58,641 nt of DNA from Chloroflexota bacterium. GTDB lineage: Bacteria; Chloroflexota; Dehalococcoidia; SM23-28-2; HRBIN24. The notes below the pieces were generated by a model. It saw only the letters and a list, made by a program, of their open reading frames with translations. It was not told where the DNA came from and ran no database searches. The stretch lies in NCBI GenBank assembly GCA_030550295.1, contig JAUQPQ010000002.1:1-58641 (forward strand), in the 5' to 3' direction. Below, one piece after another: positions 1 through 8,188 of the stretch. A program made the translations under genes and the position numbers. Within the stretch, counting starts at the first letter, position 1. Each line of letters begins with the position of its first letter.

Positions 1-132
1 GTTTTCTACTTCGAGCATGAAGGAAACGTTGCCTATAAAGGAGAACCCTTTACCGAAACACCCTCCAATGAGGGCGATCTCGGACGGATTGGCTTCGGAT
101 GCGTCGTCATCGGTAGGTGGGACTATGTCTGA
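1..132 (+). CDS. cmr3: Cmr3-like type III-B RAMP protein, C-terminal fragment (5' end lies outside the window)
   Basis: Frame 1 is open from base 1 to TGA 130-132 (VFYFEHEGNVAYKGEPFTETPSNEGDLGRIGFGCVVIGRWDYV*). It has a Gly-rich GFG tail and sits directly upstream of cmr4-cmr5-cmr6. It is absent from the ORF track because there is no start codon inside the window. Confidence 0.4.
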   Translation, partial: VFYFEHEGNVAYKGEPFTETPSNEGDLGRIGFGCVVIGRWDYV

Positions 133-145
133 AGGAGGTGGTCCT

Positions 146-1075
146 ATGTTTGACAGAGCTGCCATAATTTACCTTTACGTGGAGACGCCCCTACATGCCG
201 GCAGTGGCACCAGCCTGGGCATCGTGGACCTCCCCATCCAGCGAGAACGCACGACAGGTTATCCGATCGTGCAGGCCTCGGGCCTAAAAGGTTGCCTGCG
301 AGATGCGGTAAGTAACATGAAGCCCCAGAAGGTGGAGCTCGTCTTTGGTCCGGACACCCAGCGGGCTTCTGAGCATGCGGGGGCGATCTCCGTCGGCGAT
401 GCCCGTATCCTGCTCTTTCCCGTTCGTTCCCTCTCGGGCGTCTTTGCCTGGGTTACCAGCAAGGACGTGCTGGCTCGCTTTCGGCGCGACGCCCAGATGG
501 CAGGCGTGTCCTTAAATTGGACGGAGACCGGCCCCGAGACAGATGGGGAAGCGCTGGTGAGTTCGAAAAAGGCTCTCGTCAAAGATGACTGCATCGTGCT
601 GGAAGAATTTTCCTTTAAAGCGAAGGAGCATACCACTGCAAAGGAAATCGCGGAATGGCTAGCCCAAAATGCCCTGCCCGCCTGTGAGGAGTACGACTAC
701 TGGCGGAAAGCCTTGCCCCAGCGCCTCGTCATCTTGCCGGAAAACGCCTTTCGCGACTTTACGCTGTTTTCTACCGAGGTGGTCAGCCGCATTCGCCTGG
801 ATGACGAAACAAAGACGGTGGCCCGCGGCGCCCTCTGGTCAGAAGAGCACCTCCCCTCCGACACCCTCCTGTACGCCTTGCTCTTTGCCAGCAAGCCGCG
901 GGCGAACAGCCCGCCGTCTGATCTTCAGGATGCGGCTTCAGTGCTGAAGTTTGTCACAGATCGTATAGACGGCAAGCGGCTACAGCTGGGCGGCGATGCC
1001 ACAGTAGGACGCGGTTTCGTAAAAGTCCGTATCTCGGAGGGTAGCCATGGAGCGGTCGCTTCAAAAAACCCTTGA
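146..1075 (+). CDS. cmr4: Cmr4, type III-B backbone RAMP subunit (target-RNA cleaving)
   Basis: ORF 17-1075 trimmed to ATG 146, which is preceded by GAAGGAGG at 131-138. RAMP hallmarks: YLYVETPLHAGSGTSLGIVDLPIQRE (conserved Asp), ASGLKGCLR, and a C-terminal G-rich loop LGGDATVGRGFV. Confidence 0.85.
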   Translation: MFDRAAIIYLYVETPLHAGSGTSLGIVDLPIQRERTTGYPIVQASGLKGCLRDAVSNMKPQKVELVFGPDTQRASEHAGAISVGDARILLFPVRSLSGVFAWVTSKDVLARFRRDAQMAGVSLNWTETGPETDGEALVSSKKALVKDDCIVLEEFSFKAKEHTTAKEIAEWLAQNALPACEEYDYWRKALPQRLVILPENAFRDFTLFSTEVVSRIRLDDETKTVARGALWSEEHLPSDTLLYALLFASKPRANSPPSDLQDAASVLKFVTDRIDGKRLQLGGDATVGRGFVKVRISEGSHGAVASKNP

Positions 1076-1451
1076 GCAGCGACGGGCAGAACAGGCCTGG
1101 AAGGACATACAAAGTGTGCTTGAGAAGGATGAAAGTTTTAAAAAGAAATACGGAAGCCTTGCCCGCAAAGTGCCCATGCTGGTGCTGACCAACGGCCTGG
1201 GGCAAACGCTGGCGTTTTTACGGGCCAAGGGTGAAAAAGGCGCCCAAAACAACGAGTACGAAATCCTGTTTCAGCATCTATCGGCGTGGACGATGAGCCA
1301 GGTCGCCCCTGAGGCAGCTAACAAAGACCTGCTTAACTGGATACTCAAAAATGACAGCGTCTCTTACCGCTGGGCCACCGCCGAGGCGCTCGCCTATCTT
1401 GTCTGGCTCAAGCGCTTTGCCGAAGCAGAACTGCCGACGGAGGAGGAATAG
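1047..1451 (+). CDS. cmr5: Cmr5, type III-B small subunit
   Basis: 134-aa helical protein with LVLTNGLGQTLAFLRAKG, lying between cmr4 and cmr6. GGAGGG sits 5 nt upstream of ATG 1047. It overlaps the cmr4 end by 29 nt. Confidence 0.8.
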   Translation: MERSLQKTLEQRRAEQAWKDIQSVLEKDESFKKKYGSLARKVPMLVLTNGLGQTLAFLRAKGEKGAQNNEYEILFQHLSAWTMSQVAPEAANKDLLNWILKNDSVSYRWATAEALAYLVWLKRFAEAELPTEEE

Positions 1452-1454
1452 GCG

Positions 1455-2627
1455 ATGGGGCCCAAGCCGTCACCCCAAGGAGGAAGGGGCGCCTCACCTC
1501 AACAGGGCGCCAGGCCATCCCCGTCTGGCCAAAATAAGTATCCCCTGCCGACAGATACCCAGGCTCTGGCCGGAATATACGCTAAGAATTGTCTCAACTA
1601 CGGCTTGCGCCTTGAAAAGTTCCTGCTGTGGCCGCGCAAGACTGGGGGGCTCCCAGAAAATGCAAAAAAGGATATACGGACCTTCCGACAATCGGGTGAG
1701 CTGGTGGCCATCCTGGATGCCTGTAAAGCCCGCTGGGAGGCCCTCCTTAATAGCTACCAGCAACGTGGTTATACGGTGAAGCGTTCTGCCATGAGCGCCG
1801 CCAGCCGCGTGATCGTCGGGTTGGGCGCTGAAAGCGTGTTGGAGACCAGCATTCGCTTACATCGCATTTACGGCTTCCCCATCATTCCGGCAAGTGCCCT
1901 TAAAGGGTTGGCAAGGTCGTATGCGAGACTCATAGAAGGTAAAGATCCGGACGATGAAGCCTTTATGGCTGTATTCGGAAAGCCGCCGCACAATGGCTGG
2001 GCGGGCAAAGTAATCTTCTTCGACGCCGTGCCTGCTAACTCAAATATAGAGTTGGAACTGGATGTGATGAATCCTCATTACGCTCCGTATTATCAAGGTA
2101 GTGCCCCTCCTGCGGATTATCATAACCCGGTGCCTATCTTTTTCCTCACCATTGCCCGGGGGAGTGAGTTTCTGTTTGCTGTGGCCTCAAAGGAAGAACC
2201 TCTCGCTCAGCAGGCTTGGGAGTGGCTCTGCAAGGGCCTGGAAGAAATGGGGATCGGCGCCAAGACCACATCTGGATATGGACTTTGGCAGGTAGCAAGC
2301 GAAATAGGAGAGCTAACTGAAGAGCCCAAAACAACATCTGGCCATGGACTTTGGCAAGGACCTCAAGGAACAACCGATAAGGAGCCACCGTTCTCGACCG
2401 AGCCGCCGCGTACGGGCCTCAAGGTATGGGCCGAAGTCGTAGATAATTCACAGAAGCCCATTAAGGTCCGACTTTTGCTAAAAGGCTACGAAGACGCCTC
2501 TCTTGAGTGCATGGGGGTGCGTAACCTATCTTCGTTTCCACCCGGGACTTATATTCTTGTGGAAATCACCCAAATGAGAGGCGGGCAGATCCAACAGGTG
2601 AGCCTTCGGGAGATACGGTGGCCATGA
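1455..2627 (+). CDS. cmr6: Cmr6, type III-B RAMP subunit with duplicated G-rich loop and about 110-aa C-terminal extension
   Basis: RAMP core GLGAESVLETSIRLHRIYGFPIIPASALKGLARS, plus HYAPYY and the G-rich loop GIGAKTTSGYGLW. A canonical Cmr6 would end near residue 280; here residues 281-390 are extra. Confidence 0.85.
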   Translation: MGPKPSPQGGRGASPQQGARPSPSGQNKYPLPTDTQALAGIYAKNCLNYGLRLEKFLLWPRKTGGLPENAKKDIRTFRQSGELVAILDACKARWEALLNSYQQRGYTVKRSAMSAASRVIVGLGAESVLETSIRLHRIYGFPIIPASALKGLARSYARLIEGKDPDDEAFMAVFGKPPHNGWAGKVIFFDAVPANSNIELELDVMNPHYAPYYQGSAPPADYHNPVPIFFLTIARGSEFLFAVASKEEPLAQQAWEWLCKGLEEMGIGAKTTSGYGLWQVASEIGELTEEPKTTSGHGLWQGPQGTTDKEPPFSTEPPRTGLKVWAEVVDNSQKPIKVRLLLKGYEDASLECMGVRNLSSFPPGTYILVEITQMRGGQIQQVSLREIRWP

Positions 2628-4144
2628 CCACCCTCCTGACCTTTCTGGGCACCGGATCCTATAAGGAAGTTACCTATGTCTGGCAGAAGGCGGAGGAAGA
2701 GAAGGTCTGTACCACGCATCTTTTCCCCAAAGCAGCCGCCGAATTCTTCCAGCCCGAGCGTGTCCTTCTTTGTGCAACCGATGAGGTGCGTACCGGCAAA
2801 GGGAAATCCCTTTTTGAAGAACTGACCCAAAGCCTGGGCAATGACCGCCAGGTACAGGTAGTGGAAATCCCTGAGGGCAAGTCTGAAGCGGAATTATGGG
2901 AGATCTTTGACCGCATCGTAAATGCGATCGCTGGGGGCGAAACGCTGATCCTGGACATCACCCACGCCTTTAGGTCCATCCCAGCGGTCGTGTTTGCCGT
3001 TGTTGCGTATCTCCGCCGTACAAAGGGCGTCCAGGTGGAGCGAATCGTCTATGGTGCGTACGAAGCCCGTCAACCTTTAAGGAGCCCACCCCAGCCAGAG
3101 GATCGGGCCCCCGTCTTCGACCTGACCCTCCTCCTGGATTTGATGGACTGGTTGTCGGGGGCCGAGGCCCTGCTCGACCGAGGTGACGCTGAAGTGTTGG
3201 CCCAGCGGATGGAGGAGACCCATCGCCGTCTTTGGAAAGGGCGGGCCGCTGAAGAGCTCCCCCAGAAGTTGCAGAACGTCGCCAATAAGCTTAAAAGCCT
3301 TTCCCAGGCCCTCCACCTGGCCCGGCCCGTGGACGTGCTACGCATCGCCCATGAGCTTCAGCCGCTGTTAGACATGGCCGGGGAGGAATTCCAGCGCTGG
3401 GCCAAGCCCTTCGCCGTCATCGTGAAAAAGATACAAGATGAGATTGCACCCCTTGCCTATAAACAGCCCAAGCATTTGGATGCTGAAAACCTCCGCAGGC
3501 AACTGGCCCTTATTGAGTACTGCCTGGGGAGACATCTGACCGTGCAGGCCGTCACCTTGGCCCGGGAGTGGCTCGTAAGCCGAGCGATCCTCGAGCAGGG
3601 GAAGGGAGACTGGCTGAATTTGGCCGAGCGGGAGGAGACGGAAAAAGCCCTTGGGGCGGCCGTTCAAAAGTGGTGCCGTGGCGATGACTCGGCCGCCATC
3701 CCGGCATGGCTGGAGGGCTGGTCCCTGGCCAAGGAGGTCGCCCAGACTTGGGACTGGCTGACGCAACTCCGGAACGACGTGGCCCACTGCGGCATGAAAG
3801 CTGGCGCCAGTTCGCAAGCAAACATCGCTCAAAAGGTTCAACAGATTCCCCACCACCTGCAGCCCTTACTTGATGGAGCGCCTAAAAGTGCCCTCTGGGG
3901 TGGGCGGGCCTTCATCGATCTGAAGGCCCTGTATGGGGAAGTAGCCAAACTGGACGATCTTCCCCTATACCTGGAACGGGCCCGGGAGCTGGCCGGCGAG
4001 GGTCAAGAGGTCGTCTTGACGGGCCAGGCACCCATCTGGCTCTATCTGGCCGTCGCCCATGCCCTCCACGGCAAGGCCCGTCGCCTGTGGTACGACTCGC
4101 CTGTGACAGGAGAGGTCCTCATCTTTGACCATTCGGCGAGATGA
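2618..4144 (+). CDS. csx1: CRISPR ancillary protein: Csx1-type CARF (DxTHG-like) + HEPN RNase fused to a C-terminal Csx3/Crn3-like domain
   Basis: N-terminal LLTFLGTGSY and LILDITHAFRS (nt 2954-2974). HEPN R-N-x3-H motif LRNDVAH (nt 3767-3787). C-terminal VVLTGQAPIWLYLAVAHALHGKARRLWYDSPVTGEVLIFDHS resembles the Csx3 signature. The start is GTG 2618 or ATG 2624; the latter forms an ATGA overlap with the cmr6 stop. Confidence 0.75.
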   Translation: MAMTTLLTFLGTGSYKEVTYVWQKAEEEKVCTTHLFPKAAAEFFQPERVLLCATDEVRTGKGKSLFEELTQSLGNDRQVQVVEIPEGKSEAELWEIFDRIVNAIAGGETLILDITHAFRSIPAVVFAVVAYLRRTKGVQVERIVYGAYEARQPLRSPPQPEDRAPVFDLTLLLDLMDWLSGAEALLDRGDAEVLAQRMEETHRRLWKGRAAEELPQKLQNVANKLKSLSQALHLARPVDVLRIAHELQPLLDMAGEEFQRWAKPFAVIVKKIQDEIAPLAYKQPKHLDAENLRRQLALIEYCLGRHLTVQAVTLAREWLVSRAILEQGKGDWLNLAEREETEKALGAAVQKWCRGDDSAAIPAWLEGWSLAKEVAQTWDWLTQLRNDVAHCGMKAGASSQANIAQKVQQIPHHLQPLLDGAPKSALWGGRAFIDLKALYGEVAKLDDLPLYLERARELAGEGQEVVLTGQAPIWLYLAVAHALHGKARRLWYDSPVTGEVLIFDHSAR

Positions 4145-4388
4145 AGGAGGCCGAGGGAACGAGAGCATGGAGTCACCCGCTTGGGTGCGAGGGATGGAGA
4201 AGGAGCCGCCGGCCAAGGAGGTGGAGGCACGTAAGCTGGTTCTGCCCCTCACTGCCAGGGTGCTGCGGCCCACAATCCCTGGACTCCATCGCCTTTCCAG
4301 CCAGCGAGTGGTCATGTTGTCCCCTACACTCCTATGAGCAGGTCGAGGAGGTGGCGGCTGGCCAGCTTCCCTATCTTTTCGGGTGCTT

Positions 4389-4465
4389 TGGCGCCCCCGG
4401 CAGGACTCGAACCCGCAGCCTCCTGGTCCGAAGCCAGGCGCTCTGTCCAGTTGAGCTACGGGGGC
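4389..4465 (-). tRNA. tRNA-Arg (anticodon TCG), CCA encoded
   Basis: The reverse complement folds as a cloverleaf: acceptor GCCCCCG/CGGGGGC, D arm GCTC..GAGC, anticodon stem CCTGG/CCAGG with loop CTTCGGA, T arm GCGGG-TTCGAGT-CCTGC, discriminator G + CCA. Confidence 0.9.
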
Positions 4466-4572
4466 GCCCGACCCTCAGGATAACACGCCACCAGACGCCC
4501 TGAAAGGGGCATTGTGAGGCCCCCATTTGCTATGTTCAAATAGTCAGGGGAATCCCCGGCCCATGGAAAGCT

Positions 4573-5935: not shown

Positions 5936-6012
5936 TGGGGTGGACGGCGGGATTCGAACCCGCGATCTCCAGGGCCACAGCCTGGCGCCTTCACCGCTTG
6001 GCCACGTCCACC
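5936..6012 (-). tRNA. tRNA-His (anticodon GTG) with encoded G-1 and CCA
   Basis: Reverse complement is GGTGGACGTGGCCAAGCGGTGAAGGCGCCAGGCTGTGGCCCTGGAGATCGCGGGTTCGAATCCCGCCGTCCACCCCA. It has an extra 5' G, anticodon loop CTGTGGC and discriminator C. Confidence 0.9.
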
Positions 6013-6085: not shown

Positions 6086-8188
6086 TTAGCTACCGATCGC
6101 ACCACACCCAGGCGGCAAGTTAACAGGGAGCCCCACTATGTACCGCAGGATGAGGAGGGCGTCCACTGCGTCTACTTGGCCATCACAGTTGATGTCGCCT
6201 TTGACGGTGCCCACGCTGGTGGATGTGCAGTCGTAGTTATCGGGCTCGGTGTTGGTGTTGTCTAGGCCCTCGCCTACGCCGCCACAGGCCAGGTCAGCAT
6301 CATCGGCCCCTTCGTTGGCTTCGTCCACCACGTTGGTAGGATCGACCAGGGCGCCGTTGAGGATGTTACTACCCACGGGGGCCGTGACCTGGGCTGTTAT
6401 GGTGATCGTCTCTGTTCCTCCAGGTGGGGTGTTGAAGGGGCCGCAGCGGATGGTAGCCGCCCCTGGCCAGGGTGGGTCCCCGGCAAAAGAAGGTGCTATC
6501 TGGTCGCAGTCGCCCTCGGTGGTAGTGAAGGAAGTTACAGTGATGCCGCTACTTATGAAGTCGTCCACGTAGTAGTTGTTAGCCGCCGCCGTCCCCACGT
6601 TCTGGACCGTAATAGTGTAAGTGATGGTAGCACCAGAGGCCACGCTGATAGGCCCGCTCTTGGTGATGACCAGGTCGGAGCCTCCTACCTGGTGTAGAGC
6701 GCAATCGAAGTTGTCAGGTTCGGTAGCTACACCGGTATCCTGGCCCTCCCCTACGTTGCTGCAGTTGAAGTCGGGGTCGTCGGCGTCCTCGTTGAGCTCG
6801 GTGATCTCGTCCAGGGGGTCTACGGTGACTCCTTCTAGGACAGAACCTGAAGCGACGGTCACGGTAGCCTGGACGGTAAAGGTACGGGAGATGGGGCCAT
6901 TGGTGAGGAACTCTAAGTCGCACTCGATGGTGTTGCCGGCCACAGAGCAGTCTACCCCCGTGCCCTCGGTCACGTCGGTGATGCTAAGGCCGAAGGTGAG
7001 GCTGTCTTGCACCTTTACCACCCTGGCAGCAGCCCCTACCTTGTTCACCGTCACCTGATAGGTGATGGTAGAGCCCGAGGTCACCACCGAGCCCTCAGCT
7101 GGGTTGGCTGTCTTGGTCACTACCAGGTCTATAGAGCCCACCGTATGCTCGGTGCAGTCGAAGTTGTCCGGCTCATCATTGGGCCCTGCATCCGTCCCCT
7201 CCCCTACAGTTGAGCAGTCTAGGTCTGGGTCATCGGCGTCGTCATTGGTCTCGGTTATGTCGTTGTTAGGATCGACATAAACCCCTTGGCGGAGGGTGGC
7301 GCCAATAGCAGCGTTCGTGTTAACTCTCACTACTATGTCGAAGGTGGCTGTCAAGTCGTCCACGCTAAGGTTAGGGTCGTCCTCTTCAGGAAAGTCGACG
7401 GTACAGTTGGCCTGGGAGGGGGTATGGGTGCAAGATACGTTTGGGCCCGCTACCACATCTACGATGGCCACAGGCCCAGAGACCATGTCCCGCACAGGCA
7501 CCCCTAGGGCAGCGGCCCCGTTCTTGCGTACTGTCACCGTGTAGAGGACGGTGGAGCCGGGAGCTACCTGCTCGCTTTCGGCAGGAACCGCCGTCTTGGT
7601 AGCCATCAGGTCTATTGAGCCGATAGTGTGTATGAGACAGTCGAAGTTGTCCGGCTCATCAGGGGTCCCTGCATCCGTCCCCTCCCCTACAGTTGAGCAG
7701 CTAAGGGTGGGATGGTCAGCATCATCGTTGTCCTCTGTTAGTTGGTCTCCAGGGTCAGCTAGGGCGCCGAGGAGAACGTTGCCGCTGGGGGCAGTGACCC
7801 TCACCGTCACGTCTAACGTGATAGACTGTCCCGCCCCTAGCTGGTTGTTAAGTTGGCAGTCTATGGTAGTCACGGGGGGAGCAGTGCAGGTCATGGGGCC
7901 GGTGACGGACTCTATGTCGCCGTTGTCGGACTGAAGCCTCAAAGCGGGAGTGGCGTCAGTTGTGGATATAGCTGTATCCCCTGCGTTGCGCAACACCACC
8001 GTGTAGCGGATAAGGCTGCCCTGGGCCACCAACTCCGTGGTGGCAGGGCTGACGGAGGTGATGGTTACCTGAAAGTCCTTCCCTGGCGCAGCGCTCGTCT
8101 CCCTGACATCGTTGGCGTACAGGATGGAGACGACCGTCATCAGGACCAAAAGAGGCAACAAGATTATGCTCCTGCGCCATCTACCCAT
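6086..8188 (-). CDS. Secreted/cell-surface repeat protein: 4 Ig-like (DUF11-type) units with acidic two-Cys linkers, plus a C-terminal dockerin-like repeat
   Basis: Signal/anchor MGRWRRSIILLPLLVLMTVVSILYA. Four units of about 160 aa (e.g. DLVVTKTANPAEGSVVTSGSTITYQVTVNKVG). Each unit is followed by E-x-N-D-D-A-D-D-P-D-x-x-C-S-x-V-G-E-G-x-D...E-P-D-N-F-D-C. C-terminus GDINCDGQVDAVDALLILRYIVGL. Confidence 0.7.
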   Translation of the reverse strand: MGRWRRSIILLPLLVLMTVVSILYANDVRETSAAPGKDFQVTITSVSPATTELVAQGSLIRYTVVLRNAGDTAISTTDATPALRLQSDNGDIESVTGPMTCTAPPVTTIDCQLNNQLGAGQSITLDVTVRVTAPSGNVLLGALADPGDQLTEDNDDADHPTLSCSTVGEGTDAGTPDEPDNFDCLIHTIGSIDLMATKTAVPAESEQVAPGSTVLYTVTVRKNGAAALGVPVRDMVSGPVAIVDVVAGPNVSCTHTPSQANCTVDFPEEDDPNLSVDDLTATFDIVVRVNTNAAIGATLRQGVYVDPNNDITETNDDADDPDLDCSTVGEGTDAGPNDEPDNFDCTEHTVGSIDLVVTKTANPAEGSVVTSGSTITYQVTVNKVGAAARVVKVQDSLTFGLSITDVTEGTGVDCSVAGNTIECDLEFLTNGPISRTFTVQATVTVASGSVLEGVTVDPLDEITELNEDADDPDFNCSNVGEGQDTGVATEPDNFDCALHQVGGSDLVITKSGPISVASGATITYTITVQNVGTAAANNYYVDDFISSGITVTSFTTTEGDCDQIAPSFAGDPPWPGAATIRCGPFNTPPGGTETITITAQVTAPVGSNILNGALVDPTNVVDEANEGADDADLACGGVGEGLDNTNTEPDNYDCTSTSVGTVKGDINCDGQVDAVDALLILRYIVGLPVNLPPGCGAIGS
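7155..7217 (-). repeat. Intragenic 63-nt near-identical DNA repeat, copy 1 (linker module of the repeat protein)
   Basis: cagtcgaagttgtccggctcatca..gg..cctgcatccgtcccctcccctacagttgagcag. It matches 7638-7700 apart from a few mismatches around catt gggccc versus cagg ggtccc. Confidence 0.85.
7638..7700 (-). repeat. Intragenic 63-nt near-identical DNA repeat, copy 2
   Basis: Same sequence as 7155-7217, offset by 483 nt (161 codons). More diverged copies lie near 6225-6290 and 6700-6770. Confidence 0.85.

Follow-up and report, generated by a model that had tools for sequence, protein, structure and literature searches.

Ring nucleases set the outcome of the type III CRISPR response, which is recovery on the one side and dormancy or death on the other. 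The only fusion of an effector with a ring nuclease studied in the literature searched is Csx1-Crn2. Here a different fusion, Csx1-Csx3, is analyzed, which is encoded by the final gene of a type III-B (Cmr) CRISPR operon at the left end of a 58,641-nucleotide (nt) stretch of DNA from a Chloroflexota bacterium (contig JAUQPQ010000002.1, positions 1 to 58,641; hereafter the window). The closest solved relative of its CARF-helix-turn-helix (HTH)-HEPN body is the Csx1-Crn2 protein of Marinitoga (8Y6Z, 8Y7G, 8Y75; Samolygo 2020, PMC7293037; Zhang 2024, PMC11317161), a self-limiting RNase activated by cyclic tetra-adenylate (cA4), in which the ring nuclease likewise stands at the C-terminus after the HEPN domain. 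An arginine of CARF motif II enters the cA4 ring in this protein, and its mutation abolishes activity. The two Crn2 domains of one dimer are ~45 Å apart and pair in trans with those of a second dimer; the tetramer formed via Crn2 is needed for full RNase activity, which is cut more than 10-fold by deletion of Crn2 (PMC11317161). The C-terminal domain of Csx1-Crn2 belongs to DUF1874/Crn2, is metal-independent and uses His495 as general acid, and its fold is unrelated to that of the Csx3-like domain in the window. Thus, the two fusions arose independently, and the window protein is an analogue of Csx1-Crn2 and not a member of that family.

The C-terminal domain finds its described counterpart in AfCsx3/Crn3 of Archaeoglobus fulgidus (3WZI, 6YUD, 6VJG; PMC7371418), a stand-alone protein of ~100 amino acids (aa) that has the same fold, shares the motif G-x-x-P-[IV]-W and is ~20% identical to the window domain. 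The active site of AfCsx3 is formed by two faces from two stacked dimers. The absolutely conserved H57, H60 and H80, probable ligands of Mn2+, lie on the first of these faces. The second face makes most of the cA4 contacts and bears D69 and R71; a D69A variant is inactive and activity drops strongly in R71A. Residues that never vary across the AfCsx3 family include G45, I49 and R71 (PMC7371418).

The Csx1-Csx3 architecture is already catalogued, and the window protein adds one member. Model PDLC01844 of PADLOC-DB 2.0 ('CARF2--CARF_HEPN_CSX3') matched the window protein with 602.6 bits (E 1.3e-181), aligning aa 3-505 to profile positions 2-464 of 464 and hence the same architecture from end to end; the family is catalogued and predicted only. 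Sibling models in the same database are CARF_HEPN_CSX16, CARF_HEPN_CSX20 and CARF_HEPN_CARF. The element 'CARF2' in the model name presumably follows the CARF2 clade of the CARF classification by Makarova et al. 2020. According to a 2021 review (PMC8284326), which refers to Makarova 2020, Thermodesulfobium narugense has a Csx1+Crn3 gene, and the review reads this fusion as tying Crn3 directly to the regulation of Csx1; the T. narugense protein may belong to the subfamily of the window protein. The original prediction, which was made from the sequence alone, knew of no characterisation of this architecture, which agrees with the literature search. In view of the PADLOC model and the review, novelty of the architecture itself was overstated. 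Neither the 2020 Crn3 paper nor a 2025 survey of ring nucleases discusses the fusion.

Identity of the C-terminal domain and of the Csx1 body

The C-terminal tail of the window protein is a Csx3-fold domain. Pfam Cas_csx3 (PF09620) matched aa 461-504 with 28.2 bits, above its gathering score of 21, and covered profile positions 25-68 of 78. The PADLOC Csx3 model scored 50.5 bits (E 4e-14). When a profile built from 41 C-terminal domains was compared with the PDB, chains of AfCsx3 were the only matches at E <0.1, the best of them at 0.003. The isolated domain of 88 residues was modelled by AlphaFold with a predicted local distance difference test score (pLDDT) of 90.8. In a Foldseek search of the PDB with this model the top nine matches were all AfCsx3/Crn3 (probability 1.0, template modelling (TM) score 0.56-0.66, 83-87 aligned columns), and CARF-type ring nucleases trailed them with far weaker scores. 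Structures of Crn2/AcrIII-1 were absent among the listed PDB matches of the domain, which is not a member of DUF1874/Crn2. In the full-length model a linker of only ~10 residues (aa 418-427) joins the HEPN domain to the Csx3-like domain.

The remainder of the protein is a Csx1-type CARF-HEPN body, for which the role of an RNase activated by cyclic oligoadenylates (cOA) is predicted. The fusion protein scored 109.2 bits against NCBIfam TIGR02221 (cutoff 76.25) and 34.9 bits against TIGR02549, the model of the DxTHG domain. Residues that do not vary in an alignment of 26 homologues include G9, D111, T113 and R117 in the CARF motifs and R383, N384 and H388 in the HEPN domain. The alignment counterpart of R117 in Marinitoga Csx1-Crn2 is the essential arginine of motif II. 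The nearest PDB entries in a sequence search were 8Y75, 8Y7G and 8Y6Z, all Marinitoga Csx1-Crn2, with E ~1e-10 over aa 4-331. A full-length AlphaFold model with the 26 homologues as input reached a mean pLDDT of 89.5, and its best PDB match in Foldseek was again Marinitoga Csx1-Crn2 (E 3.7e-17, TM 0.67, 447 columns), followed by Sulfolobus islandicus Csx1 (E 3e-9) and Thermus thermophilus Csm6 (E 5e-7). Of the features that define Csx1 (TIGR02221 / CARF2 clade), the CARF domain, the HEPN R-x4-6-H motif, the Csx1/Csm6 fold and the context of a type III operon are present.

Pfam, NCBIfam, PADLOC and Foldseek thus agree with the original prediction in describing a Csx1-type CARF-HEPN protein with a Csx3/Crn3-like C-terminus at the end of a cmr operon, and the match of the tail to Csx3 was returned by Pfam, PADLOC and Foldseek alike. 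The CARF and HEPN motifs lie where they had been placed (Table 1), as does the stop codon at 4142-4144. The predicted length of 508 aa has to be corrected to 506 aa, counted from the ATG at 2624.

Conservation of the Csx3-like domain

Residues of AfCsx3 were mapped to the window protein by a HMMER alignment; numbering in the PDB chains is offset by +6. Conservation was counted over 112 fused homologues. The histidines H57, H60 and H80 of AfCsx3 correspond to H479, H482 and H503, of which the first two were found in all 112 homologues and the third in 111. S44 and G45 of AfCsx3, which contact cA4, have their counterparts in T466 and G467, and I49 corresponds to I471. T466, G467, W472, S492 and P493 are invariant. 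E497 is present in 106 of the 112 homologues and D502 is also nearly invariant. The hairpin loop that carries D69 and R71 in AfCsx3 contains an insertion of one residue and reads Y-x-S-P-x-T-G, as compared to Y-D-P-R-L-G in AfCsx3. No other part of the protein is as well conserved as the Csx3-like domain, whose mean identity to the window protein is 0.78, compared to 0.55 in the helical region, 0.52 in the CARF domain and 0.40 in the HEPN domain.

When 1.84 billion representative proteins were searched with a profile, 238 matches were returned. Among them are stand-alone proteins of this Csx3-like subfamily with 74-135 aa (such as P0128, P0134, P0137 and P0173), tandem copies (P0122/P0126) and C-terminal fusions to N-terminal domains other than Csx1 (P0189, P0219, P0156, P0132). 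These members share with the window domain the motif set TGxAPxWLY...AHALHGK...Y-x-SP-x-TG...FDH. Pfam Cas_csx3 scored above its cutoff in six of seven members tested, and P0219 gave no match. All five fused representatives keep the histidine triad, as opposed to just 30 of the 53 short stand-alone ones in this subfamily. Its retention in the fusion and frequent loss in the stand-alone form point to selection on the metal or catalytic site, beyond the fold, and suggest that this site is selected specifically in the Csx1 context.

Among the other fusions, P0189, P0200, P0222 and P0186 carry the Csx3-like domain after an N-terminal domain of ~190 aa, which in P0189 has no Pfam match and shows, by eye, a nucleotidyl-cyclase-like GDGL motif. 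The domain also follows a P-loop domain in P0219, a predicted membrane region in P0156 and HEAT repeats in P0132.

Distribution and gene context

A protein search returned 436 significant relatives. Among the best 120 of these, 118 carry the C-terminal motif, and the other two (412 and 414 aa) end before the C-terminal domain. The best relatives are 48-63% identical to the window protein over the full length, the closest database protein at 63%, and many have a precomputed pair of Pfam domains, PF27248 and PF09620. With more than 100 full-length homologues found, the Csx1-Csx3 fusion is far commoner than Csx1-Crn2.

Relatives are encoded in 159 stretches of a collection with a single genome for each species; 77 loci (L numbers) were retained. 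About 33 of them encode the fused form, with a length of 476-545 aa, and about 40 encode orthologues of 390-450 aa that stop soon after the HEPN motif. Hosts of the fused form are mostly of thermophile type, with metagenome genomes prominent, and comprise Rhodothermus, Fervidibacter/Armatimonadota, Thermoflexus, Pyrinomonas methylaliphatogenes K22, Caldatribacterium, Bipolaricaulota, Moorellaceae and Desulfoscipio. A rough tree of the Csx1 core, built by neighbour joining, groups nearly all fused forms in one clade; the fused L063 lies outside of it and the deeper branches are all unfused. A few unfused members are nested in the fused clade (L025/L026, L029 and L031-L033). L030 scores as unfused as well, yet its contig ends inside the gene. 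Most of this pattern would be accounted for by one gain at an early point and several later losses. Three further copies of the fused gene (L027:1824-3291, L021 and L058) are frameshifted or truncated, the Csx3-like part of L027 being an open reading frame (ORF) of 86 aa in a different frame; these reflect either errors of assembly or genes in decay.

A survey of the fusion beside type III loci located it directly 3' of cmr4-cmr5-cmr6 in 13 related loci, as in the window, and after a type III-D operon in three (L015, L017, L022). The full order, with a complete cmr1-6 operon, is seen in Pyrinomonas methylaliphatogenes K22 (L011), where cas6, cmr1, cas10, cmr3, cmr4, cmr5, cmr6, csx1-csx3 and cas6 are followed by a type I-B module. 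The Cas10 proteins of L001 and L011 contain the GGDD cyclase motif. On the chromosome of Fervidibacter sacchari PD1 (L020) a type I-B operon (Cas7, Cas5, Cas3) starts with the fused gene; housekeeping genes lie upstream, and no type III genes were present among the tested upstream ORFs within 10 kb. The source of cOA must be encoded elsewhere. The ORF layout of L003 is nearly identical to that of L020, and the same probably applies there.

In two loci of the fused clade that have lost the module (L025:8958-10004 and L026:6582-7640) a gene for a Cas_APE2256 (CARF) protein of 348-352 aa is inserted between cmr6 and the unfused csx1, and this protein may replace the lost module. No separate csx3 was detected within 10 kb of unfused orthologues, except for a canonical Csx3 domain in L043, a metagenome-assembled genome of Chlorobiota. 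This domain scores 78 bits in Pfam, contains both D-P-R-L-G and the histidine triad, and forms the C-terminus of a 422-aa protein (L043:18375-19643). Pfam matched nothing in the N-terminal 320 aa of this protein, and its gene lies ~7 kb downstream of the unfused csx1 orthologue. Families enriched beside unfused as compared to fused csx1 were other type III subunits, cas2 and the APE2256 CARF protein (four loci), in numbers too small for statistics.

Proposed function and alternative explanations

The window protein is probably, if only by a little, a self-limiting RNase activated by cA4, whose Csx3-like module would serve for oligomerisation of the enzyme as well as for degradation of the activator. 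On encountering target RNA, the Cmr complex would cause Cas10, encoded beyond the left edge of the window, to make cA4. The dimeric CARF domain would bind cA4, with the invariant motif II residue R117 reaching into the ring, and binding would activate the HEPN RNase (R383/N384/H388) for non-specific degradation of RNA. These steps are predicted from homology to characterised Csx1 proteins and from the invariant motifs. The Csx3-like domain would then pair in trans with that of a second Csx1 dimer, resulting in a tetramer or a higher assembly, and the histidine cluster H479/H482/H503, which is metal-dependent in AfCsx3, would bind and cleave cA4. The RNase would in this way carry its off-switch in a fixed 1:1 ratio and limit its own activity. 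As the linker comprises only ~10 residues, pairing in trans as in Csx1-Crn2 is likely, and it would explain the very high conservation of the Csx3-like domain. Removal of cA4 by this domain is plausible on account of the fold, the histidine triad and the analogy to Csx1-Crn2; cA4 is the presumed ligand.

Several observations weigh against this mechanism. The domain misses the NCBIfam equivalog for Crn3/Csx3 (TIGR02579), with 22.2 bits compared to a cutoff of 55.4. R46 of AfCsx3 is replaced by Q468. D69 corresponds to D491, a position that is not conserved among the fused homologues (T in 36, D in 20, S in 19, A in 13, and others), and R71 corresponds to V494, which is V in 55, T in 43, A in 11 and I in 3 of the homologues and never R or K, so that an equivalent of R71 is absent. 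Catalysis by Crn3 needs two head-to-tail stacked dimers, whereas here the domain is tethered to Csx1. Within the fused clade L029 and L031-L033 lack the module and have no obvious replacement within 10 kb. Finally, no biochemical or structural study of a Csx1-Csx3 fusion was found in the full-text literature search. Because the half-site of D69 and R71 is not conserved, the chemistry cannot equal that of AfCsx3. Judging from topology only, E497, located across the beta-hairpin from position 491, and K484/R486/R487, located beside the histidine cluster after the histidine-bearing helix, are candidates for substitute residues. The built-in cA4 off-switch of the original prediction is thus a plausible proposal, which is reasonable by analogy to Csx1-Crn2 and weakened by the lack of conservation at D69 and R71.

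The unconserved catalytic pair and the missed equivalog cutoff also agree with a Csx3-like module that is not a nuclease at all and serves in assembly or ligand binding, the main rival explanation, which is possible but rather on the unlikely side. Such a module could join Csx1 dimers into tetramers or cA4-bridged filaments and thereby stabilise or activate the HEPN site, or it could provide a second cA4 site and, as a buffer or sponge, determine the threshold of activation; the histidine cluster would then hold a structural metal or a ligand. Unusually high conservation of the domain is what would be expected of a module with multiple interfaces. Marinitoga Csx1-Crn2 needs its C-terminal domain for the tetramer, with the loss of RNase activity upon deletion mentioned above, AfCsx3 itself makes cA4-bridged head-to-tail filaments, and the fold persists without the triad in 23 of the 53 stand-alone members. 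A non-catalytic role is less easily reconciled with the three histidines, which are absolutely conserved in catalytic Crn3 and invariant in the fused family, yet dispensable in stand-alone proteins, or with the near invariance of E497 and D502; moreover, the Csx3 proteins tested experimentally are, as far as known, all ring nucleases. It is very improbable that the domain acts on RNA, by binding or trimming of 3' ends or poly(A) that would aid substrate engagement by the HEPN domain. The initial description of AfCsx3 was that of a Mn-dependent deadenylase, an RNA tetranucleotide was present in its crystal structure, and trimming of RNA 3' ends is also known from the Crn2 domain of Csx1-Crn2 (PMC7293037), but AfCsx3 binds cA4 ~100-fold tighter than RNA and is far more active on cA4, and the face that has diverged in the window protein is the one that binds RNA and cA4. 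A chance resemblance to Csx3, with the tail being a lineage-specific extension of Csx1, is hardly credible. A single-sequence phmmer comparison with AfCsx3 gave just E 0.2 and the Pfam match spans only part of the profile; this explanation is nevertheless refuted by the profile matches confined to AfCsx3, the top nine Foldseek matches and the end-to-end PADLOC match, and it is opposed by the Pfam score above the gathering score, the score of the PADLOC Csx3 model and the alignment of the catalytic histidines.

An unlikely variant is that the domain represents a distinct Csx3 subfamily, in which the face of D69 and R71 was lost and the histidine face was kept, lined by K484/R486/R487. It would work unlike Crn3, pairing Csx1 dimers in trans and cleaving or clamping cA4 with the histidine face alone or against cA4 held in the CARF domain of the neighbouring dimer. 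If this were true, signal degradation and oligomerisation of the effector would be one coupled event. The fusion raises the mechanistic question of how a Crn3-type domain could function while tethered to Csx1 and devoid of the half-site of D69 and R71 that AfCsx3 needs. For genome annotation the protein is ordinary; its value lies in this question and not in its architecture.

The cmr operon and neighbouring features

The csx1-csx3 gene is preceded by cmr4, cmr5 and cmr6 (Table 1). Genes for cas10, cmr1 and cmr3 are out of view because the left edge of the window cuts the operon. The ORF listing of the window offers two starts for csx1-csx3, GTG at 2618 and ATG at 2624. The ATG is the likely start, since homologues open with M-[KT]-x-L-x-[TS]-F-L-G, a GGGAGA sequence is situated ~12 nt upstream and an ATGA (2624-2627) is formed with the TGA stop codon (2625-2627) of the preceding ORF 1455-2627. 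The start of csx1-csx3 thereby overlaps the stop of cmr6, in line with the translational coupling that had been proposed.

Table 1. Coordinates of the csx1-csx3 gene, its domains and neighbouring features in the window
Feature	Coordinates	Strand	Remarks
cmr4 (type III-B Cas7-like RAMP)	17..1075	+	TIGR02580 Cmr4, 260.7 bits; Pfam RAMPs
cmr5	1047..1451	+	Pfam Cas_Cmr5, 131.9 bits; TIGR01881
cmr6	1455..2627	+	TIGR01898 Cmr6, 158.5 bits
csx1-csx3 fusion gene	2624..4144	+	506 aa; CARF, helical region, HEPN and Csx3-like domain; start codon likely
CARF domain	2624..3118	+	aa 1-165, approximate boundary; motif I FLGTGSY; DxTHG/motif II DITHAFR at 2954-2974
Helical (HTH-like) middle region	3119..3478	+	aa ~166-285, approximate boundary; secondary structure of the model; aligned to HTH region of 8y75/8y7g
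HEPN domain	3479..3883	+	aa ~286-420; R-N-x3-H motif LRNDVAH at 3767-3787 (aa 382-388)
Csx3/Crn3-like domain	3905..4135	+	aa 428-504; H479 (4058-4060), H482 (4067-4069), H503 (4130-4132)
tRNA-Arg(TCG)	4389..4465	-	Rfam tRNA, 68.3 bits; ARAGORN; bounds the cas operon

The position of the tRNA-Arg gene means that the cas operon abuts a tRNA gene. Such genes are a common border of acquired islands. A second one, tRNA-His(GTG), was found at 5936-6011 on the minus strand, after mgtE. A 120-aa ORF at 4141-4503 (plus strand), which overlaps the stop of csx1-csx3 and was considered as a small partner gene, is spurious; it contains the tRNA-Arg gene on the other strand, matches no Pfam or NCBIfam family and has no homologue across the 77 related loci. 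A search across the window detected no CRISPR array.

The G+C content is 0.56 in the cmr stretch (1-2623), 0.60 in csx1-csx3 and 0.61 from 4600 to 58641, a contrast that weakly hints at separate histories. In the Cmr4 ORF ~45-50 aa precede the start of the RAMP/Cmr4 profile (aa 50-53) as an N-terminal extension, and the true start codon of cmr4 may be located further downstream. Within cmr6 a direct repeat of 31 nt (2260-2290 and 2326-2356, 87% identical, spacing 66 nt) doubles the glycine-rich RAMP motif (KTTSGYGLWQ and KTTSGHGLWQ). Pfam RAMPs spans aa 117-277 of the 390 aa of Cmr6, and the ~90 C-terminal residues after the repeat have no family match. Further downstream, at 6086-8188 on the minus strand, a 700-aa protein unrelated to csx1-csx3 is encoded, which contains DUF11/CARDB repeats and a C-terminal dockerin-type match.

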